A stretch of DNA of 64,000 bases, taken from positions 218,891 through 282,890 of the forward strand of contig DYDB01000001.1 of the NCBI GenBank assembly GCA_020718085.1, given 5' to 3'. Position numbers and translations under genes: made by a program. Origin of the DNA: Micavibrio sp. (GTDB lineage Bacteria; Patescibacteriota; Minisyncoccia; Moranbacterales; GCA-2747515). Below the pieces are notes generated by a model, which ran no database searches, had not been told where the DNA came from, and was given only the letters and a program-made list of their open reading frames with translations. Shown here piece by piece: positions 39,281 to 63,085 of the stretch; the stretch's first letter is position 1; the number at the start of each line of letters is the position of its first letter.

Positions 39281-39293
39281 TGAATAAAAACAT

Positions 39294-39321
39294 TGATTTA
39301 TTGGTGAAAATGTGCTATAAT
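39294..39321 (+). promoter_or_regulatory. Near-consensus sigma70 promoter with an extended -10 (TTGATT-16-TGcTATAAT)
   Basis: TTGATT at 39294-39299, TGC + TATAAT at 39313-39321. Confidence 0.5.
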
Positions 39322-39329
39322 AAGGGTGT

Positions 39330-39510
39330 AGAGAACTTAACAATATTACAAAATACGGATCTTTTCTTGTGAAATACACAGGATGGGCAAACTGGGAAAT
39401 CTGCGGTGCGCCTTACGGGATCTGTAACTGACATGCTTTACAAAGCGGTTGGGAGATTTCATTCAGTTGTCGAACTGGATCAAAACTCTTAGCCGCTTTT
39501 TTTGTTTGGT
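39330..39510 (+). ncRNA. Candidate small RNA or 5' leader transcribed from the consensus promoter
   Basis: ORF-free stretch of about 180 nt ending in ..GCCGCTTTTTTTG. Downstream HD-domain gene at 39587. Family not identified. Confidence 0.25.
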
Positions 39511-39586
39511 TAAGAGATAATCAAAGAAAGTGAGGCACGCCTATGATATATCGCACAAAACATTTTAATCAGTAATAATATTCATT

Positions 39587-40458: not shown

Positions 40459-43400
40459 ATGACCTCCAAAAATAGCATTATCGACAATCATAGTCATAAT
40501 AACCTCTATCGAGCCATATCCGACGCAATAGGGTCTGACACAATAGGCATAGATATTGAGGTCGGATATTTTTATCTCTGTGGTTTTGAACTTTTGTCAA
40601 AAAAACTCAGTAAAATCAAAGTGCGATTATTAGTTGGTTCTTATATTGACCCAGAAGCTATGCCAACTTTGATAATGGAGTCGATGAAAAAATCAACGAT
40701 AAATCTTGATCCTTTTCAGCCTAGAAGCATTCCGTCATCAAAACAAGAAAGAGTCCGAGCTTTTAGCGAAGGCATTAAAAAACTTGCAAACCAAACGTCA
40801 ATATTTGACGCGCCGGAAGCACAGGAATCATACTCAATTCTCGAAAAAAAACTCGAGGATGGCTCCCTTGAAATTAAAATGACCGAAACACAAGCACATG
40901 GAAAATATTATGTGATCCATAATAAAAATGTAGGCAAAGTCTTTATGGGCTCGAGCAATTTTACGTATAATGGCCTAATTGGACAACAGGAAATAAACGA
41001 ATCTTTTGATTCAGAAGAAAAATATATAGAATATTCAAATAAATTTTCTGATCGATGGTCTGATGCTCGCAATATTGTCATTCAAGAAAAAGGAAAATCA
41101 GACATGTTTTTGAGAAAATTTAAAGATGAGCTGTGGATGAATGTGGTGCCGACCCCGTATCTTATGTATATTCGACTTCTTAATGAAATATTTGGTGCCG
41201 AATATGAAATTGATGTAACTAGCGCCTCGCAGGCAACACGAGGACAATATTTAAATCTTTCATATCAGATGGACGCGGTGAAGATGGCACTTGAAAGATT
41301 AAAAAATTATGATGGTGCTATTATTGCAGATGTTGTTGGTTTAGGGAAAAGTGTTATAGCTACTACTATTGCTGTAAACTGTCCTGACTTAAAAACGATC
41401 ATTATTGCTCCGCCACATTTAGTTCCGATGTGGGAGGATTATGTTGAAGAATTTAAACTTCGAGGACCAAAGGTTTTTAGTTCTGGGAAAATTGATGATG
41501 TTTATAATAAATACAAAAATTCTACAGAGCCTATATTATTTATCTTTGATGAAGCCCATAGATATAGAAATGAGGACACACAAGACTATCAGTCACTTCA
41601 TCAATTGACTCGCAGCAATAGTGAAAATAAGGTTCTAATATTATCCGCAACACCTTTTAATAATGATCCGAGTGATATCTTTGCGTTGATTAAACTTTTT
41701 CAAACCCCTGGTGCAGCTACACTCCGAACAGTGGAAAATTTATCAGCAAAGTTTGCAGATCTTGCAAATAGATACAAAATGCTGCGACGATTTCAAGCAA
41801 AGGGAGCCGTAACCGCAGATCAACGTAAAGAATTGGATATCAAGCGCGACGACATTGCTTCTGAACTTCGACGATTGCTCGAACCTATTATAATTAGACG
41901 TTCAAGGATAGATCTTGAAAAAATTACTCGATACCGAGAGGATTTAAAAGCTCAAGAAATTGAATTTTCAAAGATGAACGATCCAATTATCCGGGAGTAT
42001 GAGTTAGGTGAATTTACCAGCATATATCTGGATACTATAGAGCGAATTGTGCCAAATTCTAAAATCGCGGGTGGTTTAACTGGTGCGCGATATATGCCAA
42101 CGACCTACGCATTAGATATTGTTGAATTTGCTGAGAAGTATCCAGAATTGGAGGATATCAGAACTGCTCAAATGAACGTGGCTTCTTTTATGCGCAAACT
42201 TTTGGTAATGCGCTTTGAAAGTTCAAGAGCGGCGTTCAAAAGCACTCTGCAAAAATTTATCGATTCACATCAAAAAATTCTTGATTGGGTAGAAAAGAAA
42301 CAATTAGTACCGATTTCCAAGAAAGCCTACATTCCCTCTCCAGATGAGATGCCGGAAGAGGATACCGAAGAAATCAATTTGGAAGAACATGCTGAATTTG
42401 CAAACACTGAAGTTAAAAATAGTAAAAAGATTGTTTTCGTCAAACTTGAAGATCTGAATGAAAATTTTGTACCTGAGCTTAAGCGCGATATCAGTGTACT
42501 AAGAGATATTTACGAAAAATGGTTTGGTTCGCGATCGCCATTTTTATCGATGCCAGACCCAAAATTAAAACAACTCACGCTAGATATTCAAGAACATCTA
42601 GAAAATGATCCCCATCGAAAAATAATTATTTTTAGCATGTATGCTGATACTGTTGTTTATGTGGGAGAATCTCTGCAAAAGTCTGGAATTTCAACATTAG
42701 TTTATACTGCCCAGAATAGCAGAAATGATCGCAAAATAGTGAGAGAGAATTTTGACGCCGGTATCCCGGACAATAAACAATCTGATGATTTTAGAGTTCT
42801 TGTTGCAACTGATGCTTTGAGCGAGGGCGTAAATCTAAATAGAGCAGGACGAATTATTAATTATGATATTCCATATAACCCAACCAGAGTCATACAGCGA
42901 GTGGGCAGAATAAACCGCATAGATAAAAAAATGTTTAATGAGCTTTTTATTGATAATTATTTTCCTACCGAACACGGCGAGAAGGAAACAAATATTAGAG
43001 GGGTATCAACATTAAAGATGCAGATATTTAATTCCGTGGTAGGAAATGACTCGCGCACTCTCACGAAAGATGAAACCCCAGAATCATTTTTTATCGATGA
43101 ATTTAGAAAAGCAACGACTGAAGAAGAGAGTTGGGACACTACTCATAGAGAAGCATATGAGCAAGCAAAGAAAAATATTGAAGTAATTGAGCTTGCAAAA
43201 AAAATACCGATGCGAGCGCGAATTATTAGAAAAAATAAACAAGTTCAATTGGGAGTTGGCGTTGGTATTCGCGGCGAAAATAAAATTTATGCTCTTGAAA
43301 ATAGTGGACAGGCTGAGTTGGTTGATGCAGAAAAAGTATTAAATCATTTTGCGGCGAAGCAAGATGAAATTGGCGAGAAAGCCGATGATCAGTTTGGTGT

Positions 43401-43746
43401 TGTATTTGATGCAATTAAAGAAAAATTATTTGAAAAACCGCCGATGGGAAGAATGTCAAAAAACCGAACTGATGTTGTAAATATATTACGAAGCGTTCAA
43501 GAATCTCAGTATCAGAATTATTGTGATGATTTATTGCAAGTTGTGAGTGATCTTGACGATCTTTCAGAAGGTCAACTCAAGGCAATAATAAGGCTCGCAA
43601 AAAATACAGACGTATCTGATGATAAATTGCTGGAAGGCATTATTGAAATAGCGCCAGAACAGCAGATAAGAGTTAGTTTAGAAAGACAAAGCAATGAAAC
43701 AAAATCAGCAAATCTTCTATTATTCACTCAAGAGCACCGAGTATGA
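40459..43746 (+). CDS. PLD-family nuclease domain fused to an SNF2/SF2 helicase (restriction-type motor-nuclease)
   Basis: N-terminal PLD-like HxK..GSxN (HGKYYVIHNKNVGKVFMGSSNF). Helicase motifs I (DVVGLGKS), II (DEAHRYRN), III (LSATPFNN) and VI (QRVGRINR). Confidence 0.85.
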   Translation: MTSKNSIIDNHSHNNLYRAISDAIGSDTIGIDIEVGYFYLCGFELLSKKLSKIKVRLLVGSYIDPEAMPTLIMESMKKSTINLDPFQPRSIPSSKQERVRAFSEGIKKLANQTSIFDAPEAQESYSILEKKLEDGSLEIKMTETQAHGKYYVIHNKNVGKVFMGSSNFTYNGLIGQQEINESFDSEEKYIEYSNKFSDRWSDARNIVIQEKGKSDMFLRKFKDELWMNVVPTPYLMYIRLLNEIFGAEYEIDVTSASQATRGQYLNLSYQMDAVKMALERLKNYDGAIIADVVGLGKSVIATTIAVNCPDLKTIIIAPPHLVPMWEDYVEEFKLRGPKVFSSGKIDDVYNKYKNSTEPILFIFDEAHRYRNEDTQDYQSLHQLTRSNSENKVLILSATPFNNDPSDIFALIKLFQTPGAATLRTVENLSAKFADLANRYKMLRRFQAKGAVTADQRKELDIKRDDIASELRRLLEPIIIRRSRIDLEKITRYREDLKAQEIEFSKMNDPIIREYELGEFTSIYLDTIERIVPNSKIAGGLTGARYMPTTYALDIVEFAEKYPELEDIRTAQMNVASFMRKLLVMRFESSRAAFKSTLQKFIDSHQKILDWVEKKQLVPISKKAYIPSPDEMPEEDTEEINLEEHAEFANTEVKNSKKIVFVKLEDLNENFVPELKRDISVLRDIYEKWFGSRSPFLSMPDPKLKQLTLDIQEHLENDPHRKIIIFSMYADTVVYVGESLQKSGISTLVYTAQNSRNDRKIVRENFDAGIPDNKQSDDFRVLVATDALSEGVNLNRAGRIINYDIPYNPTRVIQRVGRINRIDKKMFNELFIDNYFPTEHGEKETNIRGVSTLKMQIFNSVVGNDSRTLTKDETPESFFIDEFRKATTEEESWDTTHREAYEQAKKNIEVIELAKKIPMRARIIRKNKQVQLGVGVGIRGENKIYALENSGQAELVDAEKVLNHFAAKQDEIGEKADDQFGVVFDAIKEKLFEKPPMGRMSKNRTDVVNILRSVQESQYQNYCDDLLQVVSDLDDLSEGQLKAIIRLAKNTDVSDDKLLEGIIEIAPEQQIRVSLERQSNETKSANLLLFTQEHRV

Positions 43747-46700
43747 AAAATCCTATTTTTGAAAATAAATTCAACGAAGAGGCTTTTAATGACTTTATTC
43801 ATGGCATTATTCCAAATCTTTCCTTGGGAAAAAAACGAGCCGAGGTTCGCACTGGCTTCAAATCAATTCAACAAATCGCTGAAGCCGGCGGAAATACACT
43901 AGATTTAGTCGTTTTTGTTGCAAAAATTGAATCATCACTTCATGCTCGTGTCGAAATTACAAAAAATACATACTCGATACTAAAAAGTCATGCCCGGTCT
44001 AATGCTTTAGTTGCCTATATTTCAGATGATTCTTCAGAATGGCGCCTCTCTCTTATTACGACAAAAGTTACGAGGACAAAAGACGGGATAAGGGAATCAA
44101 TATCAAATCCTCGCAGATTTTCATATGTCTTAGGGCCAGATGCAAAAGTGGCAACCCCTTCAAAAATGCTCCAAGGACATGTTGATTCAATTATTGATCT
44201 GGAAAATAAGTTTTCTTTGGCAGTGGTTAGCAAGGAATTTTTTACTCAAATAGCAACACAATATTCTAAACTTGTTGGAGGTACGAGGGGTGCAGGCAAA
44301 AAGGCAATAGTTTTCAAAAGAACGCTTAAGCTTGGGGATGAAAATGATGCCGTCAATGCAAATTTTGCCATTCGACTTATTGGTCGATTAGTTTTTTGTT
44401 GGTTTTTGAAACAAAAGAAAGGACATGCGGACAATCCGCTTATACCGTCTGAGATTCTATCTGTTTCCGCAGTAAAAACAATTAGTGATTATTATCATTC
44501 AGTTTGTGTGCCACTTTTTTTTGAAGTGTTAAATAAACCACAATCATCTAGACCGACATTTTATTCTCATGCTGAATTATTTGATAAAGTTCCTTTCTTG
44601 AATGGTGGTTTGTTCCAAGACCATGTCGAAGATAATCACAAATTCAATCGTGCCACCGGGATGAGTGAACGTCGCGGTGTGGTAGATGTGCCGGATGTTT
44701 GGTTTTCTGAATTATTTCAAATTTTTGAGGAGTATAACTTTACTATAGACGAAAACACTTCAATTGATACCGAGCTTTCAATCGATCCGGAAATGTTAGG
44801 ACGAATTTTTGAAAATTTATTGGCAGAGGTAAACCCGGAGACGGGCGCAAGCGCTCGCAAATCAACTGGCAGTTTCTACACACCTAGAGAGATTGTGGAT
44901 TTTATGGTGGAAGAATCACTCATCGCTCACCTAAAAACACAAATTAATATATCCGAAGATAAGTTACGTGCTCTTTCATCTTACGATTTGGACGATGATG
45001 TATCACAACCAATAGACCCGCAAGAACGAAAACTTATAGTTGAAGCAATTCATAATACCACAGTTTTAGATCCGGCCTGTGGCTCGGGCGCATTCCCAAT
45101 AGGAGTTCTCCAGAGATTGGTTCATATGCTCGGTGTTCTTGACCCGGAATGTTCAATTTATTTAAGCAAGATTCCGCCCGAAGTTCGCAGGGAATTACAA
45201 AAACATAGCCTTACTTATGTGCGGAAACTTGGAGTAATTAGAGAGTGTATTCACGGAGTAGATATTCAGCCCATCGCTATAGATATTTCGCGTCTGCGAT
45301 GTTTTCTGACGCTTGTAGTAGATCAGCAAGTTGATGACAGCGCTCCAAACAGAGGCATTGAACCATTGCCAAACCTTGATTTTAAGTTTGTTTGCGCCAA
45401 CACTCTTGTTAAACCACCAGTTCATGAAGGTCCGCTATTTGGTGATGAGTTTGCGACTGCTTTAGGCGAGCTTATTGATGAATATTTTGCGCCGGTTGAC
45501 CAGTTGCACAAACTGGAGACGGCGCGAAAATTGCAGCAATTGATTAGTGATAAAACAAAAAAAGAGTTAGAAAATATTTTGAAGTCATATAGTTACATAA
45601 AAGATGAAAAATACAAAAAAGCACTGGCTCAGAAAAATGAAAAATCAGACGCTGAAAGAATGCGCATAAATAATTTGTGGGGAAGTTATGAAAATATTTT
45701 TCAAAATAAACCAGTTGGCTTTTTTGATACCAGATATTTTTTCCCCACAGTATTTCGCAATGGTGGATTTGATATTGTGATTGGAAATCCACCTTATGTT
45801 GGAGAAAAAGGACATAAAGAGATGTTTAGGGAAATTAAATATTCACCACTGGGAAAGAGATTTTATCAAGGAAAGATGGATTTTTTCTATTTTTTCTTTC
45901 ATGTAGCTTTGGATAATTTACAGGATGATGGGGTGCTGGCGTATATAACCACTAATTATTACTTAACAGCATTGGGTGCGCGGAAACTTCGGGAAGATTT
46001 TAAAAACCGTACTATTATCAAAAAACTTGTTAATTTTAACGAGCTTAAAATTTTTAAATCGGCTGCGGGTCAACATAACATGGTTACAATTTTAACTAAA
46101 AGACAAAACAACGGAACATTAGTTAAAACATGTATAACGAAAAATACAGGCGATACAACTCCTGCTGTACTAGAAAGTATTATTGGTTGGAAAGACAATA
46201 ATACAGACTACTATGAAGTTGCTCAAAAAGATTTATATGATGGGGAAGAGAATTATTTGCGTCTAGCTGGAACAAATAGTGAGCGTAATCCTCTACAGTT
46301 CTTATTGAATAAGATAAAAGAGAAGGGTGAATTATTAGAGAATATTTGCAATATTAATACTGGAATAATGGGAGGCTGCGATTATATAAATAAAAGTAAT
46401 ATTGAATATTGCACACAAAGAGAAAGGTTACAAAAAGATATTCAGGTAGGAGATGGTGTTTTTGTTCTTGATATAAAAAATGATCGAGATAAAAAAGTAT
46501 TTGATATTATTCAAAACAATAAATCTCTAGTGAAATTTTTTAAAAATTCAGATATTGTTAAGTATCATACAAGCTATTCAACAACAAAATATATCATTTT
46601 CTCATCTAGAGAAAATGATGCAGTAAAAGATAGCAATGTAATGAAGCATCTGGATAAATTCAAACAAGTTCTTATAAAAATTCGTGAAATAAATAATGAG

Positions 46701-47201
46701 AAAACTTCAGATTACCCATTTCTTAGACGAGGAACTTCTCATCAGGAAATATTTGTATCGCCTAAAATAGTTACTCCATATCGATGTTCTGTAAACTTGT
46801 TCGCATATAATGATATTCCTTGGTATGCGAGAACTGATGTGTATTATTTATCTGAAAAAGACAAGAGAATATCTCTTAAATATATACTCGGCTTGTTAAA
46901 TTCAAAACTTTATTATTTATGGCTCTATCATCGTGGAAAAAGAAAAGGAGAGCTTTTAGAAATATTACAAAAACCTTTATCTGAAATTCCAATTAAAAAA
47001 ATACCAGAGCTAGAACAAAAACCCTTCATCGAAATTGTTGATAAAATTTTGACAATTACCAAATCCAGCGATTATTTAGAAAATCCAGCAAAAAAAGCAG
47101 AAGTCGAAAAGTACGAAGAGGATATTGATAAGCTTGTTTATAAGCTCTATGACCTTACGTATGAAGAAATTGAAATTGTGAAAAAATCAATTAAAAAATA
47201 A
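43743..47201 (+). CDS. Gamma-class N6-adenine DNA methyltransferase (Eco57I/PglX-like) with large N- and C-terminal (TRD-like) regions
   Basis: SFYTPREIV, DPACGSGAFP (motif I) and NPPY (motif IV, IGNPPYVGE). Start overlaps the upstream stop (ATGA), so translationally coupled. Confidence 0.85.
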   Translation: MKNPIFENKFNEEAFNDFIHGIIPNLSLGKKRAEVRTGFKSIQQIAEAGGNTLDLVVFVAKIESSLHARVEITKNTYSILKSHARSNALVAYISDDSSEWRLSLITTKVTRTKDGIRESISNPRRFSYVLGPDAKVATPSKMLQGHVDSIIDLENKFSLAVVSKEFFTQIATQYSKLVGGTRGAGKKAIVFKRTLKLGDENDAVNANFAIRLIGRLVFCWFLKQKKGHADNPLIPSEILSVSAVKTISDYYHSVCVPLFFEVLNKPQSSRPTFYSHAELFDKVPFLNGGLFQDHVEDNHKFNRATGMSERRGVVDVPDVWFSELFQIFEEYNFTIDENTSIDTELSIDPEMLGRIFENLLAEVNPETGASARKSTGSFYTPREIVDFMVEESLIAHLKTQINISEDKLRALSSYDLDDDVSQPIDPQERKLIVEAIHNTTVLDPACGSGAFPIGVLQRLVHMLGVLDPECSIYLSKIPPEVRRELQKHSLTYVRKLGVIRECIHGVDIQPIAIDISRLRCFLTLVVDQQVDDSAPNRGIEPLPNLDFKFVCANTLVKPPVHEGPLFGDEFATALGELIDEYFAPVDQLHKLETARKLQQLISDKTKKELENILKSYSYIKDEKYKKALAQKNEKSDAERMRINNLWGSYENIFQNKPVGFFDTRYFFPTVFRNGGFDIVIGNPPYVGEKGHKEMFREIKYSPLGKRFYQGKMDFFYFFFHVALDNLQDDGVLAYITTNYYLTALGARKLREDFKNRTIIKKLVNFNELKIFKSAAGQHNMVTILTKRQNNGTLVKTCITKNTGDTTPAVLESIIGWKDNNTDYYEVAQKDLYDGEENYLRLAGTNSERNPLQFLLNKIKEKGELLENICNINTGIMGGCDYINKSNIEYCTQRERLQKDIQVGDGVFVLDIKNDRDKKVFDIIQNNKSLVKFFKNSDIVKYHTSYSTTKYIIFSSRENDAVKDSNVMKHLDKFKQVLIKIREINNEKTSDYPFLRRGTSHQEIFVSPKIVTPYRCSVNLFAYNDIPWYARTDVYYLSEKDKRISLKYILGLLNSKLYYLWLYHRGKRKGELLEILQKPLSEIPIKKIPELEQKPFIEIVDKILTITKSSDYLENPAKKAEVEKYEEDIDKLVYKLYDLTYEEIEIVKKSIKK

Positions 47202-47278
47202 TTATATTAACGCTGGTTTTTCATATCTCAAATATTATTAGTAGACTTGGGGGAATAACATAATTAATAATTAAAAAG

Positions 47279-47680
47279 ATGAATTACAATAATTTTTATC
47301 AACCAAAGAAACGCGTATTTATTAGCTTTGATTTTGACAACGATCAATTTCTCAGGGATTCTCTTATTGGTCAATGTAAAAACAATGGCACGCCGTTTGA
47401 TATGGAGGATTGGTCAGTGAAAGAGCCATGGAGCCAATGTGATTGGAAAGAAAAATGTTTGTCTAAAATCAAGAGATGTAATTTAGTTATTGTTATGGTG
47501 GGAGAGAAAACACATACTTGTAGCGGAGTGTTAGCTGAAATAGCAATGGCGAAAGAAGCTCGTGTTCCAGTTGTTGGATTAAAAGGCTATTCTAATAAAA
47601 ATTGCCCCAGACCGGAAGGATTGGATGGTTACTATAATTGGGCATGGGAAAATGTAAAAAAACTAGTTAATAGATATTAG
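47279..47680 (+). CDS. Short TIR-like (ThsB / DUF1863-type) domain protein
   Basis: RVFISFDFDND..CNLVIVMVGEKTHTCSGVLAEIAMAKEARVPVVGLKG parallels ThsB SVTVVLIGAETSNRRWVKYEIEESYKRGNGLLGIYI. Confidence 0.65.
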   Translation: MNYNNFYQPKKRVFISFDFDNDQFLRDSLIGQCKNNGTPFDMEDWSVKEPWSQCDWKEKCLSKIKRCNLVIVMVGEKTHTCSGVLAEIAMAKEARVPVVGLKGYSNKNCPRPEGLDGYYNWAWENVKKLVNRY

Positions 47681-47685
47681 ATAAT

Positions 47686-48168
47686 ATGGATAAAAAGCTT
47701 CTTAATAGGTCTGTGCAAGAATACGGTGAGAATTATTATGCTCATTATTTCGAACAATACAAAATGTATATTGAAAGCACCGAAAGAATTAGCGATAGAA
47801 GGCAGAATGCAAATAATTTCTTTTTAACTATTAATACCGTTCTTATATCCGCATTTGGATTGTCTTTTCAACTTAAAGTACTAGAAAATCTTAATTGGAT
47901 AAAAATGATTTTAGCATTACTCGGGCTTGTTATTTGTGTGATATTTTGGTTTCTGCTTAGGGCTTATAAGCAGTTAAATTCTGGCAAATTTAAAGTTATT
48001 CACGAAATAGAACAAAATTTGCCATTAGGATTATATGATTATGAATGGGAGCTTCTTGAAAAAGGAAAAAATAAAAAAATTTATTATCCATTTTCTCATA
48101 TCGAATTGTTAATACCGTGGGTATTTGGTTTATTCTATTTTGTTTTAGGAGTTATTTTTATAGTATAA
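47686..48168 (+). CDS. Small 2-TM (SLATT-like) membrane protein, putative effector partner of the TIR protein
   Basis: 5-nt gap after the TIR gene. 160 aa with a soluble N-terminal helix, two adjacent TM helices, a helical C-terminus and a terminal hydrophobic segment. Confidence 0.45.
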   Translation: MDKKLLNRSVQEYGENYYAHYFEQYKMYIESTERISDRRQNANNFFLTINTVLISAFGLSFQLKVLENLNWIKMILALLGLVICVIFWFLLRAYKQLNSGKFKVIHEIEQNLPLGLYDYEWELLEKGKNKKIYYPFSHIELLIPWVFGLFYFVLGVIFIV

Positions 48169-48227
48169 AGGTTTCGCCTAAATGAATAATGCTGTTCATT
48201 TATTAATTACTTACATAATTTTAAAAT

Positions 48228-49652
48228 ATGGCAAAAAAAGAAGCTACAAACGAGCTGGTAAATTACGATAGGCAAATGGCTCAACATCAAGAGCAATTTT
48301 TGACTTTGCTTGGTAGCAAGGGTTTGCCAACAGAGAATATATTTGTTCCAATCAAAGAAAGATCCACTGTTTTTTCAAATGCTAATTCTTTGTTAGATAA
48401 TATTGATGATACAAGAAGATTTGAAGCAGTTTACGTTTCTAAATTTTTTGCTGCAGTTGCCGTTGGTTTATTTGATGCTGCATTGAATTATCTTTGGGAT
48501 GAGACGGTCGTTCATTTACGAAAAAGAGTTGAAACATATGATCTTGAATATTTTTATGACATAGCAACTTCAGCTGACAAAAGAAAAGAGCTCAAAACCA
48601 TAGATGATATTTCTAAGCTTACAGATGATGAACTGTTGAGAGGATCACTTACAATTGAGCTTATATCTGAGGTTGGATTTAGGAATATGGATCTTGTAAG
48701 GCATATGAGAAATAATGCTAGTGCAGCACATCCAAACCAAATGAATATTACGGGCCTCAAGTTAATTTCGATGGCAGAAGATTGTCTGAGGGAAGTTATC
48801 TCAACACCAATTCCGCCTGCAGCTATAGCTGTCCAGAAGCTACTTGAGAACATAAAAACTACCACAATGAAAACTGGCGATGCACAAGACGTGTCAGTGC
48901 ATTTTTCTAGTATGGGGCCAGTTCGAACACAAAGATTGGTCGAAGGGTTATTTGGAATTTTTTATAAAAGAGAAACAACTGAGGCCGTAAGACAAAATAT
49001 TAGACTACTCGCACCAATGCTTTGGCCTTACGTGGATGAACCTACTAGAAAGAATTTAGGCCTAAAGCATGCATATTTTAGTGCAAATAATCATATTGTA
49101 GAAAAGAATTTTTCCAAAGAGTTCTTGGCTGTTGTTGATGGTCTTCAATATATAACTGATCAGCATAGAGCAATAGAAGTTTCTACAGTTCTTGAGGAGC
49201 TAAAAAATGCGCATTATGGTTTAAATAATTTTTATAATGAAGTGTTGCCTGCACGGAGACTTAAATCAATAATTGGAGATGTGCCCAGTGTTCCCATGGG
49301 GATTCAAAATAAGTATATAGAAACCTTAATTGATGTATTTCTGACGAATGGATATGGCGAAGCGCGATCTGCAAATGACATATATTTCGAATTAATAAAT
49401 GGCTTTACCCCAAAACAAGCCGTTTATGCGATAACCTTAATATTTGATGAGGGAATTTCGAGTAAATTAAGAATTAAATTGTGTGCAGAAAAATATTACG
49501 AAATGATTAAAATTGTTGAACCAAAAATATCTACACATGCTGCCAAGCAGTTAATCGAACAGATAAAATTAAAAAAAACACAGGCAGGAGATATTAGGTC
49601 TGATGAAAAATTAAAGCAAGTCGTAAAATTAGCGCTAGAGGAAATTAGATGA
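48228..49652 (+). CDS. Hypothetical 474-aa protein with an Rx6H (HEPN-like) motif
   Basis: RNNASAAH within LVRHMRNNASAAHPN. No other recognisable domain. Confidence 0.55.
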   Translation: MAKKEATNELVNYDRQMAQHQEQFLTLLGSKGLPTENIFVPIKERSTVFSNANSLLDNIDDTRRFEAVYVSKFFAAVAVGLFDAALNYLWDETVVHLRKRVETYDLEYFYDIATSADKRKELKTIDDISKLTDDELLRGSLTIELISEVGFRNMDLVRHMRNNASAAHPNQMNITGLKLISMAEDCLREVISTPIPPAAIAVQKLLENIKTTTMKTGDAQDVSVHFSSMGPVRTQRLVEGLFGIFYKRETTEAVRQNIRLLAPMLWPYVDEPTRKNLGLKHAYFSANNHIVEKNFSKEFLAVVDGLQYITDQHRAIEVSTVLEELKNAHYGLNNFYNEVLPARRLKSIIGDVPSVPMGIQNKYIETLIDVFLTNGYGEARSANDIYFELINGFTPKQAVYAITLIFDEGISSKLRIKLCAEKYYEMIKIVEPKISTHAAKQLIEQIKLKKTQAGDIRSDEKLKQVVKLALEEIR

Positions 49653-49692: not shown

Positions 49693-49726
49693 GTAACATA
49701 ATCCAACGGCCGTGGAATTATGTTAC
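49693..49726. repeat. 34-bp palindromic cassette-boundary repeat, copy A (GTAACATAATccaACGGCCGTggaATTATGTTAC)
   Basis: 10-bp AT-rich arms, ACGGCCGT core, followed by TTTTAGAGAATAATTTA. The next start codon lies 29 nt downstream. Confidence 0.9.
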
Positions 49727-49754
49727 TTTTAGAGAATAATTTAAAAACAAAATT

Positions 49755-50477
49755 ATGACGAAAAAAATATCGTTTAGTGATAAATTAATTGAGTTTTATC
49801 TGACTGTTTTTGTTGTTACTCTCATTTATCTTTATTTACATCACGAATATTTTGCAATGGGTGTTTTAGTCGTTACAATGCCTTGGCCAGTAGTTGCATA
49901 TATTTTATATAAAAAGAGAAAAAAGCGATCTTTTTTTGAAAGTAATAATTCACTGGAAAAAATTAGAGCGTTGACTCCGATGCAGTTTGAGGATTTTATC
50001 TGTCACTTGTTTGATAAATTGGGTTATGTGACGGAAAGGGTGGGTGGCTCGAGTGATGGTGGTATTGATGTGATTGCAACAAAAAATGGGGTGAAGCACT
50101 ATATTCAATGTAAAAAATTTATTACTAGTCAGGTAAGTGTTGGTGCGATGCGTGATTTTTATGGTGCTGTGACAGATAAACTTACAGATGCAAAATCATT
50201 TTTTATCACAACAAATATTTTCACGCTTGAAGCAGAACAGTTTGCTGAAGGGAAGTCGATAGAGTTAATTGATGGGAAAAAACTGATGGACTATGTAAAA
50301 CTGGCAGGTATCGATGCGCCAGCATCGGATCAGACAAGTTCCAGTGGTGATACTGCAGAAAAGTGTCCAAATTGTGGAAACGATTTGATTCTAAGAACTG
50401 CACGAAAAGGCACTCACGCCGGAAAAACTTTCCTCGGTTGCACAAACTACCCCCACTGCCGATTTGTCAAAAAGTAA
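49755..50477 (+). CDS. Membrane-anchored Mrr-type (PD-D/ExK) restriction endonuclease with a C-terminal topoisomerase-type C4 zinc ribbon
   Basis: Mrr_cat signature GGSSDGGIDVIATKNGVKHYIQCKK..FITTNIFT..LIDG; CPNCG..GCTNYPHCRF. Its stop codon lies inside repeat B. Confidence 0.75.
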   Translation: MTKKISFSDKLIEFYLTVFVVTLIYLYLHHEYFAMGVLVVTMPWPVVAYILYKKRKKRSFFESNNSLEKIRALTPMQFEDFICHLFDKLGYVTERVGGSSDGGIDVIATKNGVKHYIQCKKFITSQVSVGAMRDFYGAVTDKLTDAKSFFITTNIFTLEAEQFAEGKSIELIDGKKLMDYVKLAGIDAPASDQTSSSGDTAEKCPNCGNDLILRTARKGTHAGKTFLGCTNYPHCRFVKK

Positions 50478-50507
50478 CATAATCCCACGGCCGTAGAATT
50501 ATGTTAC
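50474..50507. repeat. 34-bp palindromic cassette-boundary repeat, copy B
   Basis: GTAACATAATCCCACGGCCGTAGAATTATGTTAC followed by TTTTAGAGAATAATTTA. Confidence 0.9.
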
Positions 50508-50537
50508 TTTTAGAGAATAATTTATAATATAAGAAAT

Positions 50538-50762
50538 ATGATAAAAAATAGCACTGCACTGATCAAACCAAACAAATATATCTCAATAGCGATTTCATTA
50601 TTATTTGCTGGTGTATTTCTCTATCTATGTGGAAGAGATGTTAAGATGATTCTGGACAGTCAGGTGACTCTTGAGCCGATAAAATATGTGGCTGCAGTAA
50701 TATGGGGCGCGGCTACAGTCGCAATGGTTGTACGGGCATTTAAGACGATCTTTGCCAAATAA
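50538..50762 (+). CDS. Small 2-TM membrane protein
   Basis: 74 aa with two hydrophobic helices; starts 31 nt after repeat B. Confidence 0.4.
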   Translation: MIKNSTALIKPNKYISIAISLLFAGVFLYLCGRDVKMILDSQVTLEPIKYVAAVIWGAATVAMVVRAFKTIFAK

Positions 50763-50775
50763 TAACAAACCACAT

Positions 50776-51129
50776 ATGACTGATGCAGTACGAAAATATA
50801 TAGCTAAACAAGATCCCCAGAAAAAAGCGATATTGGAGAAATTACGCACATTGATCCAAAAGGCTGCACCGTTGGCGCAGGAGTGTATGAGCTATGGTGT
50901 ACCGGCTTTTAAAATTAATGGTGGCAATCTGGTCATGTACGCCGCATTCAAAAACCATATTGGCATCTATCCCGAGCCCGATACGATTCTGGCATTTACC
51001 AAAGAGCTTGCGGGATACAAAACCGCCAAAGGGTCGATCAAATTCATGTTGGATGAGCCGATCCCTTATCCTTTGATCAAAAAGATCATCACATATAAGT
51101 ACAAAAAACTCAAGGAAAATTCTAATTGA
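50776..51129 (+). CDS. DUF1801 (YdhG-like) family protein
   Basis: ORF 50728; internal ATG at 50776. Sequence resembles the YdhG/DUF1801 family. Confidence 0.55.
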   Translation: MTDAVRKYIAKQDPQKKAILEKLRTLIQKAAPLAQECMSYGVPAFKINGGNLVMYAAFKNHIGIYPEPDTILAFTKELAGYKTAKGSIKFMLDEPIPYPLIKKIITYKYKKLKENSN

Positions 51130-51145
51130 GTAAAATGCAAAATAT

Positions 51146-51394
51146 ATGACAAAAATCGCCACTGGCGTTGTGCATAAAGTCCCAAAAGATCTAAAAGAAA
51201 TGTTGATAGGAAATCCAGACATTTTGACAATATGGAATAGTTTAACCCCGCTTGCACGCAATGAATGGATCTGTTTTCTCGTAAGTGTAAAGCAGGAAGA
51301 AACACGAAGAAAACATCTGACTCGAATACAAGAGGATCTTAGCAAAGGAAAGAAACGTCCCTGTTGCTGGGCCGGATGTCCACATAGAAAATAA
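51146..51394 (+). CDS. YdeI/OmpD-associated family small protein
   Basis: C-terminal ..KQEETRRKHLTRIQEDLSKGKKR matches the YdeI-family ETRxxRi..L..GKK motif. Confidence 0.5.
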   Translation: MTKIATGVVHKVPKDLKEMLIGNPDILTIWNSLTPLARNEWICFLVSVKQEETRRKHLTRIQEDLSKGKKRPCCWAGCPHRK

Positions 51395-51411
51395 GTAAAA
51401 AACACTCAAAA

Positions 51412-51445
51412 GTAACATATTCCCACGGCCGTAGAATTATGTTAC
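51412..51445. repeat. 34-bp palindromic cassette-boundary repeat, copy C
   Basis: GTAACATATTCCCACGGCCGTAGAATTATGTTAC. Confidence 0.9.
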
Positions 51446-51474
51446 TTATTAAAATTTAATAAGATTTACATTTT

Positions 51475-52029
51475 ATGAATATTGACAATAGAAATAATCA
51501 CAACGCACGTGAAAAATCGCACGCAACGACAACTCGATCTTCCTATTTTATGATGTGGATCATTGTTGGTATCGTAGTGTTCTTAATATTTTTTATAATA
51601 CTTGTTTTTGGTATATTTTTGTTTCAAAAGAATGGGGATAATATGACAACATATGTTTCCACGTCGACTACTGATAAAAAAAACAACCATACATCACTGA
51701 AACCACATGATCCATGTCAAGATTTACTTGCAGGCATGTATCCAGACGGACGGGTTGAGATTAGGGATGAGTCAGACCTGCGCATCATATTGAATGAAAC
51801 TATGCAAAGATTGGCGCAAGTCAACAAAGACCTTTTAATTACATATGACGAGTCCTGCTTGATTTATATAATCACGACTAAATCACTTGTACACAATGAA
51901 AATGATAGCCTAGATGTAGCATACTACAATACGATTGCAAATGAATATATTACTTACTATGACATGGATTCTGATAATCTAAGAAAGGCTCTGGAAATAT
52001 TATTCAATGGAACTCCCAGATCAAAATAA
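51475..52029 (+). CDS. Hypothetical membrane-anchored protein
   Basis: 184 aa with an N-terminal TM helix; single-gene cassette between repeats C and D. Confidence 0.5.
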   Translation: MNIDNRNNHNAREKSHATTTRSSYFMMWIIVGIVVFLIFFIILVFGIFLFQKNGDNMTTYVSTSTTDKKNNHTSLKPHDPCQDLLAGMYPDGRVEIRDESDLRIILNETMQRLAQVNKDLLITYDESCLIYIITTKSLVHNENDSLDVAYYNTIANEYITYYDMDSDNLRKALEILFNGTPRSK

Positions 52030-52116
52030 TACGTCAAGAGAATCAGGTCAAGAACTTTGTGTTTTTGTGCCATATTACCTAATGATATAATATAGCCGCT
52101 ACAAAATTTCAAAAAA

Positions 52117-52150
52117 GTAACATATTCCCACGGCCGTATAATTATGTTAC
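52117..52150. repeat. 34-bp palindromic cassette-boundary repeat, copy D
   Basis: GTAACATATTCCCACGGCCGTATAATTATGTTAC. Confidence 0.9.
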
Positions 52151-52162
52151 GCTTGGTATGTT

Positions 52163-52726
52163 ATGTACAAAATAGGGAAGGTACAAAAAAAGATCCTTAT
52201 TTCACTTTTTGGTGGTGTCGCACTTGGTCTTTCACATTCGCCACGACAGTATTTTGCAACACTTTCGGTTATCCATAAAGATTGGCAAAAGATCAATCAA
52301 CGCAGTTTTGCGCGATCACTCAAGAGACTATCTCAAGAAAAACTCATCAAAGAATGTAAGATGCCGAATGGGTCATATAAACTTGTTTTGACTGCAGAGG
52401 GGAAAAAGATAGCGCATCAGTTAGACCTCTTTGGATCGGTCAAAACATTTATAAAACCCAAGAAATGGGATGGAAAGTGGCGCATTGTGATCTTTGATAT
52501 ACCGGAAAATGATCGTGTATTTCGTGATATTTTGCGCAAGCATCTCTATACATTGGAATTCAAACAATTACAGCAAAGTGTTTTTGTCTCACCGTATCCG
52601 TGTGAAAAAACGATATTAGATCTCGTGCGTCTATACAATGCAGGCAAATATGTTCGAGTAATTACAGCATCAGACATCGACAACGCTTCTGATCTCAAAA
52701 AACATTTTTTCAAAAAGGTAAAGTAA
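52163..52726 (+). CDS. PaaX-like regulator with a Cas2-fold C-terminal domain
   Basis: WRIVIFDIPENDRVFRDILRKHLYTLEFKQLQQSVFVSP resembles the Cas2/PaaX C-terminal fold. N-terminal wHTH-like. Confidence 0.5.
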   Translation: MYKIGKVQKKILISLFGGVALGLSHSPRQYFATLSVIHKDWQKINQRSFARSLKRLSQEKLIKECKMPNGSYKLVLTAEGKKIAHQLDLFGSVKTFIKPKKWDGKWRIVIFDIPENDRVFRDILRKHLYTLEFKQLQQSVFVSPYPCEKTILDLVRLYNAGKYVRVITASDIDNASDLKKHFFKKVK

Positions 52727-52756
52727 CATAATTATACGGCCGTGAGATTATGTTAC
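52723..52756. repeat. 34-bp palindromic cassette-boundary repeat, copy E
   Basis: GTAACATAATTATACGGCCGTGAGATTATGTTAC; the preceding gene's stop is in the repeat's left edge. Confidence 0.9.
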
Positions 52757-52808
52757 AATAAATAAATTATAAGTATTGTATCAATAAATTATATTAAATT
52801 GTGAATTT

Positions 52809-53309
52809 ATGAGTAAAGTTATTTGTACAGATAGAGATGGTAATACACATGAGGTTTCATCTGAAGAGTTGCGTTTTCGTCCCTCTGTGTATGGTGTGAT
52901 CATAAAAGACGGCGCACTACTTTTGTCCAAACAGTGGGATGGCTATGATTTTCCCGGAGGAGGTATTGAGATTGGTGAGGAAATCAAAAGCGCTCTTGTG
53001 CGAGAAGTCAAAGAGGAAACCGGCATGGATGTGACGGTGGGAGAAATTGTGGCATGTGAAAATTCTTTTTATAAGCCCCTTTTAGATGATTCACATAATA
53101 ACGGTTGTTTACATTCTATCCTGATCTATTATCTGTGTAATGTTATAGGCGGGGAACTCTCTATTGATCATATTGCAGATAATGAAAAAAAATACATCTC
53201 CATGCCGGAATGGATTCCCCTTGAAAATGTTGACAAGGTCAAATTTTATAATTCAATTGATAGCATGCAAATCATTCAACAAGCGCAACATGTTCTAAAT
53301 TCAATTTAA
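52809..53309 (+). CDS. NUDIX hydrolase
   Basis: Nudix box GGGIEIGEEIKSALVREVKEETG. Confidence 0.8.
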   Translation: MSKVICTDRDGNTHEVSSEELRFRPSVYGVIIKDGALLLSKQWDGYDFPGGGIEIGEEIKSALVREVKEETGMDVTVGEIVACENSFYKPLLDDSHNNGCLHSILIYYLCNVIGGELSIDHIADNEKKYISMPEWIPLENVDKVKFYNSIDSMQIIQQAQHVLNSI

Positions 53310-53330
53310 AAATTTATTAGTATACTTAAT

Positions 53331-54131
53331 ATGGATAAAGATAAAAATAAAGTTGCAATAGTTACTGGAGGTGCCTTGGGGTATATGAATGGTGGCCCAT
53401 CTATTGGTGGTTCTATAGCAATGCGCTTGGCTAATGATGGATACAGGGTGGTTGTGGTCGATCTCGGAGAGATGGGTCAAAGAACTGTAGATGTCATTGG
53501 CAAAAATGGTGGCGAGGCCATTTTCTTGCAGTTGGATGTCACAAAAACAGAAGATGTAAGGAAGATCGTGGAAACAACAGTGGACACGTTTGGTGGTGTG
53601 ACCTGTTTGGTAAATTGTGTTGCACGGTATAGTCCTGGTATGGCCAAGAATGTGGTTGATATTTCCGAAGAAGAATGGGATGAGACGCTCAAAGTAAATC
53701 TCACAGGATATTTTTTGATGGCGAAATATACTATCCCGGAAATACTGAAAACTGGAGGTGGTACGATCATAAACATCTCTTCAATCGAAAGTGACATTGC
53801 ATTGCCGAACTTTAGTGTATATTCAGTTTCAAAAGGTGCAATTGATGCACTGACACGAACTGTTGCAACTGATTTTGCCCCGCTTATCAGATGCAATTCT
53901 GTATTACCAGGGTTTGTAAAGATCGCAAATTCTGAAAATGATCGTTCGGAGCACGAATTAGAGGAATGGTATCAAAACATTGCAAAAAAATATCCGATGA
54001 AAAGAGTGTGTGAAACACATGAAGTGGCCAATGTCGTTTCCTTTCTTGCTGGCGATGAATCGTCATATATAAATGGTCAATCAATTGTTGTGGATGGTGG
54101 AAAAGGAATTGCAGATGCACATGAGTTTTAA
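53331..54131 (+). CDS. Short-chain dehydrogenase/reductase (SDR)
   Basis: TGGALG cofactor motif, YSVSK catalytic YxxxK and a 266-aa length. Confidence 0.85.
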   Translation: MDKDKNKVAIVTGGALGYMNGGPSIGGSIAMRLANDGYRVVVVDLGEMGQRTVDVIGKNGGEAIFLQLDVTKTEDVRKIVETTVDTFGGVTCLVNCVARYSPGMAKNVVDISEEEWDETLKVNLTGYFLMAKYTIPEILKTGGGTIINISSIESDIALPNFSVYSVSKGAIDALTRTVATDFAPLIRCNSVLPGFVKIANSENDRSEHELEEWYQNIAKKYPMKRVCETHEVANVVSFLAGDESSYINGQSIVVDGGKGIADAHEF

Positions 54132-54190
54132 AAAATGAAATAATTCAAGATGCTTTAGAGTACTACATAACAAGTAACTTATTAACTTTT

Positions 54191-54397
54191 ATGCATATGC
54201 AAGTCAATGAAAGCGCTATGGACCGTGTTTTGCGAGCAATCGGTGGTGTTGTGGTGTTATATTTCTCCTATATGGCATTCACAGGATGGATACAGATCGT
54301 AGGTTATGTGATCGCTGCAGTGCTCATTTTCACCGCTATTACGGGGTTTTGCGCGCTATATAAAGTACTTGGTATCAATACCAACAAGGCTGAATAG
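54191..54397 (+). CDS. DUF2892 (YgaP-like) small 2-TM protein
   Basis: RAIGGVVVLYFSYMAFTGW..IAAVLIFTAITGFCALYKVLG. Confidence 0.5.
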   Translation: MHMQVNESAMDRVLRAIGGVVVLYFSYMAFTGWIQIVGYVIAAVLIFTAITGFCALYKVLGINTNKAE

Positions 54398-54429
54398 AAG
54401 AAGTATTTTTGTTATTAAGATCATAGAGT

Positions 54430-54924
54430 ATGGTTATCGAAGCAATTCAAAAACGCAGAAGTATGCGTATGTACAAAACCGATGCGGTTTCTGAAGATGT
54501 GATCAATGAGATCATCAAAGCCGGGCAGTTTGCGCCAACAGCACATGGTACTGGAGCTGTTGAATTTCTAGTAATTACCGATGCAAAAATGAAGAAAGAT
54601 ATTTTTGACATTGTGGGTCAAGATTATGTTACAGAAGCGCCTGTGCTTATCATACCTGTTGCAACTGATGCAACAGTGCTTCCTGTGCAAGATATCTCCG
54701 TAGCAACGCAAAATATGCTTTTACAAGCGACCGATCTGGGACTAGGCAGCGTATGGAAGCATGTCGTACCTGAATGGGCAGGAAAGATCAAAGAAATGCT
54801 TTCTATTCCAGAAGGTTATCATGTGATCAATATGGTACCCATTGGATTGCCAAATGATCCGGATGTTATAGAACATGCAGATGATGATTTCAAGATCGAA
54901 AAAATTCATCGAGAAAAATGGTAA
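54430..54924 (+). CDS. Nitroreductase-family protein
   Basis: IQKRRSMRMYK..QFAPTAHGTGAVEFLVI is a typical nitroreductase N-terminus. Confidence 0.7.
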   Translation: MVIEAIQKRRSMRMYKTDAVSEDVINEIIKAGQFAPTAHGTGAVEFLVITDAKMKKDIFDIVGQDYVTEAPVLIIPVATDATVLPVQDISVATQNMLLQATDLGLGSVWKHVVPEWAGKIKEMLSIPEGYHVINMVPIGLPNDPDVIEHADDDFKIEKIHREKW

Positions 54925-61638: not shown

Positions 61639-61684
61639 GAGCATAAGAAAGTAAATAACTTTTTGTCACTAAAAGAATTACAAC

Positions 61685-61736
61685 AAACGCCACCTGAACT
61701 TCATAAAGAAGTATTCCATGTGGCGTTTTTATTTTT
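61685..61736 (+). terminator. Intrinsic terminator
   Basis: AACGCCAC..GTGGCGTT followed by TTTATTTTTG. Confidence 0.5.
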
Positions 61737-62066
61737 GTTAAATATTATAAAGATACACGCTATCAACCAACTTTATGTCGCACAATGTAGAGTATACATT
61801 TTACATAAAAACAGGGGACTTTAATAATTTTTTATAATACATTCAGACTCTCCCCAAGAAATCTTATAATTATTTAAATCCAAACGACGTATCGACGATG
61901 TTACTAAATTTTTTTTATACTATTCTTTAATCATATAAATAAATTTTTTTGCAATCATAAACTATAAAATCCAAATTTAAATTCTTATAGATTTTGTTAA
62001 GCGCACATTGATATATGATTCATATCGAACTCAATTTAATATGTAAATTTTTGTCCATACAACGCG

Positions 62067-62099
62067 TAACATAATTCTACGGCCGTCAGATTATGTTAC
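62067..62099. repeat. Palindromic repeat copy F (GTAACATAATTCTACGGCCGTCAGATTATGTTAC)
   Basis: Same family as the cassette-boundary repeats A-E, located 9.3 kb away in a non-coding region. Confidence 0.9.
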
Positions 62100-63039
62100 T
62101 GCTTTTAGATTGTTTCAGTATAGGTGAGCACAAAATAATATACTTATGCAATATCACGCAGTTTAGTACCACATATAGTTTTTATCATAATACTTTATGT
62201 ACATACCATACTGCATATAGTGCTTTTGCGTTGTTTCCAGTGGTACATGTATACCACTTAGTTCATGTCGCACAATGTAGACTCTATTTTTCACAAAAAG
62301 GTGAGAGGGTTATTGCTGCAACTTATATATGTATCGTGTGCGCCCTTACACATAAATTACAAATCACATTACCATGCTATGCAATACATATGATCCACAG
62401 ATATACGTATTGAATTAATAAGTTATAGATCAATATATTTTGATCAATGAAAGTTCATTCTAATCTAATATAATATTAATAAAGATTGGACACGGATAAA
62501 TATTCATATAAGCAGTGAAGGGTGTATAAGAGAAACATCTGTGTGATGTATATAATCAAAAGATATGCGAAAAGTAAAGAAATGAGAGATGAGATCTTAT
62601 GTATATGATCAGACGCTTTTTACTGCCTATGTCGCATAATATACATTGTGCGACGTATTATCACATAAACCTTATTGTCACCTTTTTGTACAACAAATGC
62701 AATATTTACAGCATTTATCGTATCTTATGATACATTATTTACATGATTCACTCTTCTACTGCTCTGCAACTATAAAGTGAATACAGTGTAACATTTTGAA
62801 AATGGTTTTCATGAACTTTTTCTAATAGGGGTTTTGTATGCTAGTAGTGTATCAATAAATTTTAAATGAAAATCTGCAGATACATATAAAAGGATCTTAT
62901 AAACACAATTGAAAAGAACAAGTATTTAATTTTTTAATCAACGACCACAACTATATATATGGGAATTGATTCTATACCCCCTACCCCTTTAAAAGTTATC
63001 CACAGTTGCCTTTTTACACTTAAAACAAATAACCACTCA

Positions 63040-63068
63040 AAAGAACATTTGAGTGGTTATAAATATAT
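63040..63068 (-). terminator. Terminator for the minus-strand gene 63086..63793
   Basis: AACCACTCAAA..TTTGAGTGGTT with a T-run on the minus strand. Confidence 0.5.
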
Positions 63069-63085
63069 AAGATGTAACTATATTT

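Follow-up and report, generated by a model that had tools for sequence, protein, structure and literature searches.

What is the function of the 34-bp palindromes that separate a run of small accessory genes in a Moranbacterales genome? The question is raised by a 64,000-nucleotide (nt) stretch of contig DYDB01000001.1 (assembly GCA_020718085.1, labelled Micavibrio sp.; positions 218,891 to 282,890 of the forward strand), referred to below as the window. Five copies of the palindrome, designated sites A–E, lie among genes of the same strand, and no further copy is met until site F, 9 kb beyond site E. An earlier sequence-only reading had interpreted the array as integron cassettes delimited by attC sites, with no integrase in view, and had listed operator sites for an array-encoded PaaX-like protein among the alternatives. 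The comparative evidence best supports this last alternative. Judged from sequence comparison, and with a probability of about one half, the palindromes are the DNA-binding sites of a short PaaX-family regulator encoded between sites D and E. Our verdict on the system is an undescribed variant of a repressor/operator system. A literature search turned up no publication that describes this repeat or the short PaaX-like proteins of the Candidate Phyla Radiation (CPR).

Six copies of a 34-bp palindrome

The sites and the gene that proves central to them are located in the window as follows.

49693–49726, no strand assigned: site A, a 34-bp near-palindrome, GTAACATAATCCAACGGCCGTGGAATTATGTTAC
49727–49748, plus strand: 22-nt extension beginning TTTTAGAGAATAATTTA, common to the sequence after sites A and B
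50474–50507, no strand assigned: site B, located by pattern search and matrix score
51412–51445, no strand assigned: site C, with a left half identical to that of site D, including the rare ATATT
52117–52150, no strand assigned: site D, 12 nt upstream of the ATG of the PaaX-like gene
52163–52726, plus strand: gene of the short PaaX-family protein (187 residues), the proposed binder of the sites, in the D–E interval
52723–52756, no strand assigned: site E, overlapping the stop codon of the PaaX-like gene
62066–62099, no strand assigned: site F, a solo copy in a 1.45-kb non-coding AT-rich region (61640–63085)

All six copies conform to GTAACATAWT-N3-ACGGCCGT-N3-ATTATGTTAC, a pattern expected zero times by chance and never matched in dinucleotide shuffles. 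Sites A, B, E and F match GTAACATAAT-N3-ACGGCCGT-N3-ATTATGTTAC exactly. Sites C and D carry one mismatch each, with ATATT in place of ATAAT in the left arm. The copies are where the sequence-only reading had placed them, except that site F begins at 62066 and not at 62067. A position matrix trained on 18 sites of the window's clade was run over the 64-kb window. It scores the six sites at 50–58 bits and every other position at 12 bits or less, and the window thus contains no decayed copies.

Site A lies 40 nt 3' of a gene for a 474-residue protein of unknown family and 28 nt 5' of the ATG of an Mrr-type nuclease gene. As had been claimed, the Mrr gene ends within the left arm (GTAAC) of site B and the PaaX-like gene within that of site E, the arm containing the stop codon in both cases. 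The next start codon had been put about 30 nt beyond each site; this is true of sites A, B and C (28, 30 and 29 nt), but not of D (12 nt) or E (52 nt). The conservation described beyond the palindrome in A and B is borne out and is located downstream. Toward the next start codon the two copies have 22 nt in common, compared with only about 5 nt on the upstream side, suggesting that the site travels with a 5' regulatory region and not with the 3' end of a gene. About half of the array sites contain a −10-like TAnAAT in their right half, pointing to the next gene. In site D, TATAAT occupies site positions 21–26 and is oriented toward the PaaX-like gene.

The site and a PaaX-like gene are linked in every lineage examined

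A strict pattern search in related genomes finds the same 34-mer at nine loci in seven representative genomes, with one or two copies per genome. Six of the seven are metagenome-assembled genomes (MAGs) of Candidatus Moranbacteria/Moraniibacteriota (CPR) with 42–55% GC. The 34-mer is additionally present in 11 metagenome contigs and in no viral contig; one groundwater metagenome contig (L024) is 99.95% identical to the window. The site sequence is near-identical across species whose GC content ranges from 37 to 55%.

When the window proteins were compared by tblastn with all fetched loci, the PaaX_M/Cas2-like gene was the one gene that recurs beside the site. It adjoins a site in L002, L004, L007, L009, L010, L011 and L019, in L021, L023, L026, L030, L033, L035 and L036, and, in distant classes, in L037, L041 and L043 (L numbers denote the compared loci). 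Contexts were fetched for homologues of 88, 87, 84, 65, 63, 62 and 61% identity and were added to loci already in hand (67–46%); the distant members are from Vogelbacteria, Paceibacterota and Niyogibacteria. Among complete gene copies, all 16 lineages examined have one site 0–98 nt before the PaaX-like start codon and a second site at the stop. The latter begins inside the stop codon or within about 40 nt after it.

The arms of the sites differ between lineages, and the two sites flanking the gene in one genome resemble each other. The arm types are GTAACATAAT, GTATCAYCTA, CACTCACTCA, TACCAYATTCC and TGTAATAATC, so that sites of the different lineages start with GTAAC, GTATC, CACTC, TACCA or TGTAATAATC. 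Sites in Moranbacteria and Niyogibacteria are centred on CGGCCG, or sometimes on CGGTCG; those in Vogelbacteria have CGATCG at this place, and those in a Paceibacterota genome have GCTATAGC. Across 35 distinct sites, 80% of the arm positions are complementary, compared with 59% in shuffles. Changes are double in 14 of 15 pairs, and single-sided intermediates of the G-U type are almost absent, which argues that the symmetry is maintained at the DNA level. Co-variation of the arms and linkage to the gene are therefore established properties of the site in these lineages.

The extent of homology defines the same unit. L021, L035 and L036, whose PaaX-like proteins are 84–88% identical to that of the window, are homologous to the window at the nucleotide level from site D to site E and no further, indicating a site-gene-site unit; orthologues of site D are present in all three. 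Upstream sites are in tandem in L009, L010, L021 and L033. Beyond the PaaX-like gene, the families DUF1801, TspO, UbiA, NUDIX and YgaP recur beside sites in different genomes.

The identical 34-mer GTAACATAATCTCACGGCCGTGAGATTATGTTAC is found with unrelated flanks in L003, L005 and L008, which derive from two MAGs, one labelled Bdellovibrionales and one Moraniibacteriota; this reflects either a binning or label problem or a transfer of the site. In RIFCSPHIGHO2_01_FULL_54_31, a diverged PaaX-like gene (L007 5210–5983) is flanked by CACTC-type sites, and two solo sites are of the GTAAC type (L007 7523–7556 and L006 3343–3376). These imply a second paralogue of GTAAC specificity or sites without a cognate protein. 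In another Moranbacteria lineage (L026–L029, 771–12021), an accessory island of about 10 kb that contains the PaaX-like module is located between scpA and scpB, two genes that usually adjoin each other. In Vogelbacteria, Paceibacterota and Niyogibacteria (L037–L043) the module is next to DNA replication and repair genes, namely rnhB and dnaE; recJ, rnhA and comEC; and the 3-methyladenine glycosylase gene and rmuC. These neighbours may hint at the physiological role of the regulator.

A short PaaX-family protein

The protein encoded between sites D and E matches the Pfam family PaaX_M (PF20803) with an E-value of 2.1e-23 and 82.6 bits (cutoff 24), and it also has a weak Cas2 match. The NCBIfam PaaX equivalog TIGR02277 aligns with residues 44–169 at 33 bits, far below its cutoff of 264. 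The 187-residue protein stops after the Cas2-like domain and lacks the PaaX_C domain. PADLOC returns only weak Cas2 hits, and Pfam, PADLOC and NCBIfam detect no HUH/Y1, DDE, tyrosine recombinase or serine recombinase domain in it.

The AlphaFold2 model consists of three helices and a β-hairpin followed by a β-α-β-β-α-β domain. Its top matches in the PDB are E. coli PaaX (8a39) and Rv0674 (3kfw), followed by Cas2 and VapD, and then by winged-helix proteins of the MarR type. The N-terminal part is predicted to be a winged helix (H-H-H-β-β), but its predicted local distance difference test (pLDDT) score is only 40–60 and Pfam gives no match to the PaaX N-terminal domain. At least 790 homologues are found in CPR at E ≤ 0.001, and those that are annotated are called PaaX or Cas2. 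The invariant residues of this CPR family, among them five arginines, are concentrated in the Cas2-like domain.

A search for phage carriage of the module gave no phage hit and a single truncated homologue in IMG/VR. In that contig (L044 5001–5482, classed as viral), the PaaX-like gene is truncated at the N terminus and has the stop-proximal site but no upstream site.

The sites as candidate operators

In E. coli, PaaX recognises TGATTC(N27)GAATCA and is a repressor of its own promoter (PMC9493321). It is thus typical of the family that widely spaced inverted hexamers precede the gene of the regulator itself, and an operator function would fit the sites described here. The corresponding geometry is GTAACA(N22)TGTTAC, located 12 nt upstream of the PaaX-like ATG in the same layout. 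The resemblance to PaaX of the E. coli and Pseudomonas phenylacetate catabolon extends to the predicted N-terminal winged helix, the Cas2-like middle domain, the inverted hexamers with a long spacer, and the site upstream of the gene itself, which PaaX represses and which the present protein would repress. The system also differs from PaaX in several respects. The protein has 187 residues and no PaaX_C, the host belongs to CPR, and no paa genes are found in the window. The site has an invariant GC-rich centre, an obligatory copy is present at the stop codon, and sites are multiplied between variable accessory genes.

In the proposed mechanism, one dimer of the 187-residue protein would cover one site. 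The two predicted winged-helix domains would contact the outer inverted arms (GTAACA...TGTTAC), and the Cas2-like dimer core, with its many invariant arginines, would lie over the invariant ACGGCCGT centre. The ancestral unit would be site-gene-site. Its upstream site, which overlaps or abuts the promoter and start of the PaaX-like gene, would let the protein repress its own gene in the manner of E. coli PaaX. For the stop-codon site, the possible roles are that of a second operator engaged in looping and that of a roadblock insulating the gene. In the window's clade, the site together with about 20 nt of downstream leader would have been multiplied, so that four adjacent accessory or stress transcription units, the regulator's gene and one remote locus are each proposed to carry a site. 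Binding, repression, the role of the stop-proximal site and a ligand are what we infer from this comparison. The operator model is supported by the linkage of site and gene, the co-variation of the arms, the confinement of homology to the site-gene-site unit, the protein family, the position of the upstream site, the tandem sites, the likeness of A and B, the recurring gene families and the lack of decayed copies.

A number of findings weigh against this model. A promoter scan finds no convincing sigma-70-type −35/−10 pair at a fixed position relative to the sites and no consistent −35 element, and the AlphaFold2 model is of modest quality (pLDDT 63.7). The universal presence of a stop-proximal site requires an added assumption, looping or roadblock, in a simple operator model. 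In L041 and L043 this site is kept even though the next gene is convergent, where it cannot be the operator of a downstream promoter. Similarly, the solo site of L006 is 12 nt past a stop codon, ahead of a canonical terminator and between convergent genes, a place where no promoter is expected. Many solo sites are perfect 34-bp palindromes in which the N3 segments are complementary yet variable (TCC/GGA, CTC/GAG and CCC/GGG). The two sites of L043 differ by a symmetric compensated pair, which a plain operator would not require, and L023 has five arm types around one core in a single genome. A simple operator also leaves unaccounted for an ORFan gene that is present in the window but missing from the related locus L035, with a site at each of its edges. 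The stop-proximal site, the L006 solo site, the perfect solo palindromes, the L043 pair and the L023 arms keep alive the idea of cassette exchange and that of a mobile palindrome of the RAYT/REP kind, both of which are weighed below.

Gene turnover at the sites

The genes bounded by the sites, and those that follow site E, are listed below.

49755–50477, plus strand: 240-residue protein with an Mrr_cat nuclease domain and a zinc ribbon, type IV restriction endonuclease-like by PADLOC; stop codon inside site B
50538–51394, plus strand: three-gene unit between sites B and C
50538–50762, plus strand: 74-residue transmembrane protein, B–C interval
50776–51129, plus strand: DUF1801 gene, B–C interval
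51146–51394, plus strand: YdeI/OmdA gene, B–C interval
51475–52029, plus strand: ORFan gene, 184 residues, C–D interval
52809–54924, plus strand: NUDIX, SDR, YgaP-like transmembrane and nitroreductase genes, downstream of site E

The description of the array as single-gene cassettes applies to A–B (Mrr), C–D (ORFan) and D–E (PaaX-like), but not to B–C, which contains three genes. Several of these genes are found beside sites elsewhere. An Mrr homologue of 60% identity in L023 is followed by a diverged site, the DUF1801-YdeI block is shared with L035 at 76% nucleotide identity and is bounded by sites there too, and DUF1801 adjoins sites in L004 and L005. A search of 5.8 billion proteins returned no homologue of the ORFan protein other than itself, and its cassette is therefore not traceable elsewhere.

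The closest comparison is with L035, whose PaaX-like protein is 87% identical. L035 is syntenic with the window from YgaP to an amino-acid kinase gene and has five sites that separate a 90-residue gene, a 327-residue gene, a cupin gene, DUF1801-OmdA, the PaaX-like gene and YgaP. Between conserved sites, the window carries Mrr and the ORFan where L035 carries the 327-residue protein and the cupin. The single L035 site at 9955 has two counterparts in the window: it aligns with site C, which closes the DUF1801-YdeI block, and with site D, which opens the PaaX block. Window 51446–52150 is thus a site-bounded indel of 705 bp, comprising the ORFan and one site copy, present in the window and absent from L035. 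Sites C and D share the ATATT variant, which is elsewhere characteristic of the site preceding the PaaX-like gene. The common left half suggests either a local site duplication with insertion in the window or a deletion in L035 by recombination between repeats. Genes come and go exactly at the sites, and the ORFan indel is the one clean example. Two further indels nearby, NUDIX-SDR (52757–54171, absent in L035) and the 74-residue gene, do not have a site at both ends. L021 and L023 have arrays of five or six sites that hold different genes. In L021, two intervals between sites are gene-free (9741/9955 and 11291/11419), and half-sites are present in mixed combinations in the window and in L023.

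Turnover of this kind is also a property of integron arrays with IntI, attI and attC. Further shared features are small accessory or ORFan genes of the same strand, divided by an imperfect palindrome that starts near the stop codon. However, the identification of the palindromes as attC sites has to be abandoned. The site is 34 bp long, compared with 57–141 bp for attC, and does not contain the RYYYAAC/GTTRRRY (R''/L''/L'/R') boxes: the 7-mers AAGTAAC/CTGTAAC and GTTACTT/GTTACGC each fail two of the four degenerate attC positions. An attC-like single-stranded DNA hairpin with extrahelical bases is likewise not supported. All six copies give weak hairpins on the plus strand (−3.5 to −9.9 kcal/mol), and two copies folded on the minus strand give −3.4 and −11.4 kcal/mol. 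The fold of site D has a z-score of −0.85, and no bulges are conserved among the copies. Unlike attC, the site is near-identical in sequence across seven MAGs, and some intervals hold several genes. IntI is absent, and the earlier remark that no integrase is in view stands: no tyrosine or serine recombinase or transposase domain is found in any window open reading frame of at least 100 codons, and no recombinase among the called genes adjoining the module in related loci.

Alternative explanations

Cassette exchange need not involve integron machinery. The sites could be points of recombination or insertion where individual genes enter and leave. The reaction would be catalysed by a host recombinase whose gene lies elsewhere, on the model of Xer-dependent pdif modules, or promoted by the Cas2-fold protein through cleavage of the CGGCCG core, with the PaaX-like gene as a resident site-flanked module beside a growing array. 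The different genes between conserved sites of the syntenic window and L035, the ORFan indel with both ends at sites, the small, same-strand, accessory and partly ORFan cargo, the gene-free intervals of L021 and the mixed half-sites all agree with this explanation. So do the location of a site behind the stop codon of the gene preceding it, an order also seen in cassette-plus-site units, and the invariant core, which could be the crossover region. Against it, no recombinase is encoded in the 64 kb or beside the module in any related locus, and the indel is explained equally well by local duplication or by a homologous-recombination deletion between repeats of 34–40 bp. Moreover, the NUDIX-SDR and 74-residue gene indels lack sites at both ends, most genomes have just two gene-flanking sites, the similarity of A and B runs toward the next gene and not into the preceding one, and the palindromic core confers no directionality. 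We consider such exchange rather unlikely. It is less probable still that the module is a domesticated mobile element, similar to a repetitive extragenic palindrome (REP) with its REP-associated tyrosine transposase (RAYT) or to a minimal insertion sequence, whose protein is flanked by its own palindromes and occasionally copies the palindrome to new intergenic spots; the solo perfect palindromes and the arrays would then be dispersed copies. A single-copy gene flanked by co-varying cognate palindromes is a hallmark of RAYT/REP systems, and the PaaX-like gene is so flanked in every lineage, with its stop codon within or beside the distal repeat, as in many insertion sequences. As with REP doublets (REPINs), the gene is vertically inherited and other copies are intergenic, after genes: solo copies lie just past stop codons or between convergent genes in L006, L012, L013 and L018. 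Identical 34-mers have unrelated flanks in L003, L005 and L008 (two MAGs), the module occupies different genomic places in different classes, and site F is absent from the corresponding region of L035. However, that region does not align, so that neither an insertion boundary nor a target-site duplication is definable for site F. Each locus has 1–6 copies and not tens to hundreds, decayed copies are lacking, one sequence is kept across several species instead of being species-specific, and the gene is syntenic in close relatives. The protein, in addition, has no HUH/Y1, DDE, tyrosine or serine recombinase domain. Taken more broadly, the winged-helix and Cas2-fold protein with its palindromes could form a new system, either recombinase-independent or dependent on a host recombinase, for marking and exchanging single-gene cassettes in variable islands of CPR genomes, or a RAYT/REP-like Cas2-fold element. 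The protein would then bind and possibly nick the CGGCCG core, and site-gene-site would be the resident module. This broader proposal is doubtful, though to be taken seriously.

Action at the RNA level, as a transcribed hairpin that terminates, stabilises or is processed in mRNA and is perhaps bound or cut by the Cas2-fold protein, is quite improbable. Sites do lie past stop codons, many copies have an A-run before them and a T-run after them, the folds of several are better than those of shuffles (z = −3 to −6.6), and the Cas2 and VapD relatives matched by the fold include RNases. However, the gene-flanking sites are poor hairpins in many lineages (7–10 of 14 pairs in L026, L030 and L033), and site D folds no better than shuffles. 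On the sense strand A·C mismatches (46) outnumber G·T mismatches (16), with G-U intermediates almost absent. The base of the stem is AT-rich, unlike intrinsic terminators; a terminator scan detects none at any site, and L006 and L007 have a canonical GC-rich terminator beyond the site. The exact sequence is also kept across genomes of 37–55% GC. A terminator or an Rfam family was accordingly rejected: the window has no Rfam match, the sites have no terminator-like match, and the mismatch spectrum does not favour G-U. Least probable of all, and very much so, is a dif-like Xer site at the replication terminus with modules of the type mobilised by XerC/D (IMEX) stacked beside it. The arms contain AACATAA/TTATGTT, which we take to be the inner part of bacterial dif arms, and GC skew and gene strand switch in the window at about 56–62 kb, near site F. 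A dif site has two 11-bp arms, and tyrosine recombinases need 6–8 bp between arms, but the arm motifs here (ATAA/TTAT) are 16 bp apart and the window contains no CATAA-N5-9-TTATG. Among 22 other loci, 20 show no change in the sign of the GC skew across the site, and a terminus-type plus-to-minus switch is seen in none. Each genome has several sites, always around the PaaX-like gene. The skew in other loci and the 16-bp spacing largely rule out a dif/Xer site at a replication terminus. The pdif modules of Acinetobacter plasmids and IMEX share with the array short palindromic sites that bound modules without a nearby recombinase, and a dif-like arm motif; they differ in spacing (6 bp, compared with 16 bp here) and in the alternation of XerC and XerD arms, and the sites here are not terminal in other genomes. 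The RTP/Ter system of B. subtilis also pairs a small winged-helix dimer (predicted in the present case) with its gene beside sites of about 30 bp and more sites in one region; in B. subtilis these sites are inverted repeats and the protein regulates its own gene. The symmetric sites here, however, would be non-polar, are not at skew switches, and accompany another protein fold.

Surroundings of the array

A defence-type cluster (40459–49652) lies directly upstream of the array. It encodes a PLD(HKD)-SNF2 helicase (PADLOC HKD+Snf2, DrmD-like), a type IIG-like methyltransferase, a ThsB-like TIR protein followed by an 8xMP membrane protein, and the 474-residue protein without a family match. Further downstream of the array, a Pfam domain scan identifies YceG and others. 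No tRNA genes or Rfam families are found in the window.

Three other elements of the window are worth recording. The segment 57182–57802 encodes a Cdd1/helix-hairpin-helix domain fused to a GIY-YIG nuclease domain, and the GIY-YIG part alone recurs in L033. A non-coding segment at 39284–39535 (L035 1672–1920), at the left edge of the variable island, is 76% conserved. It has a promoter-like TTGATT-17-TATAAT element, ends in a stem followed by a T-run, and has no match in Rfam even at E ≤ 1. We regard it as a candidate small RNA or a leader preceding an HD-domain gene. Around site F, region 61640–63085 contains repeated boxes TGTCGCACAATGTAGA at 61777 and 62267, together with a related palindrome near 62631 and, at 62999, a perfect DnaA-box-like TTATCCACA. 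The region has no Rfam match, and parts of it are conserved in L035. Since GC skew and gene strand flip sign at about 56–62 kb, it may be the replication terminus or another chromosomal landmark.

Significance

Transcriptional regulation in CPR/Patescibacteria is almost unexplored. The short PaaX-like proteins constitute a family of at least 790 members with a clearly defined, co-evolving DNA site, which makes the pairing of regulator and site directly testable. Compared with known PaaX regulators, the new features are the strict site-gene-site arrangement, which several candidate phyla have in common, and the dispersal of the site among fast-turning accessory genes. If the sites only regulate, they would represent a first portable operator and regulon for Moranbacteria. 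Should they mediate the gain and loss of genes as well, they would represent a new cassette system with a Cas2-fold protein outside CRISPR.

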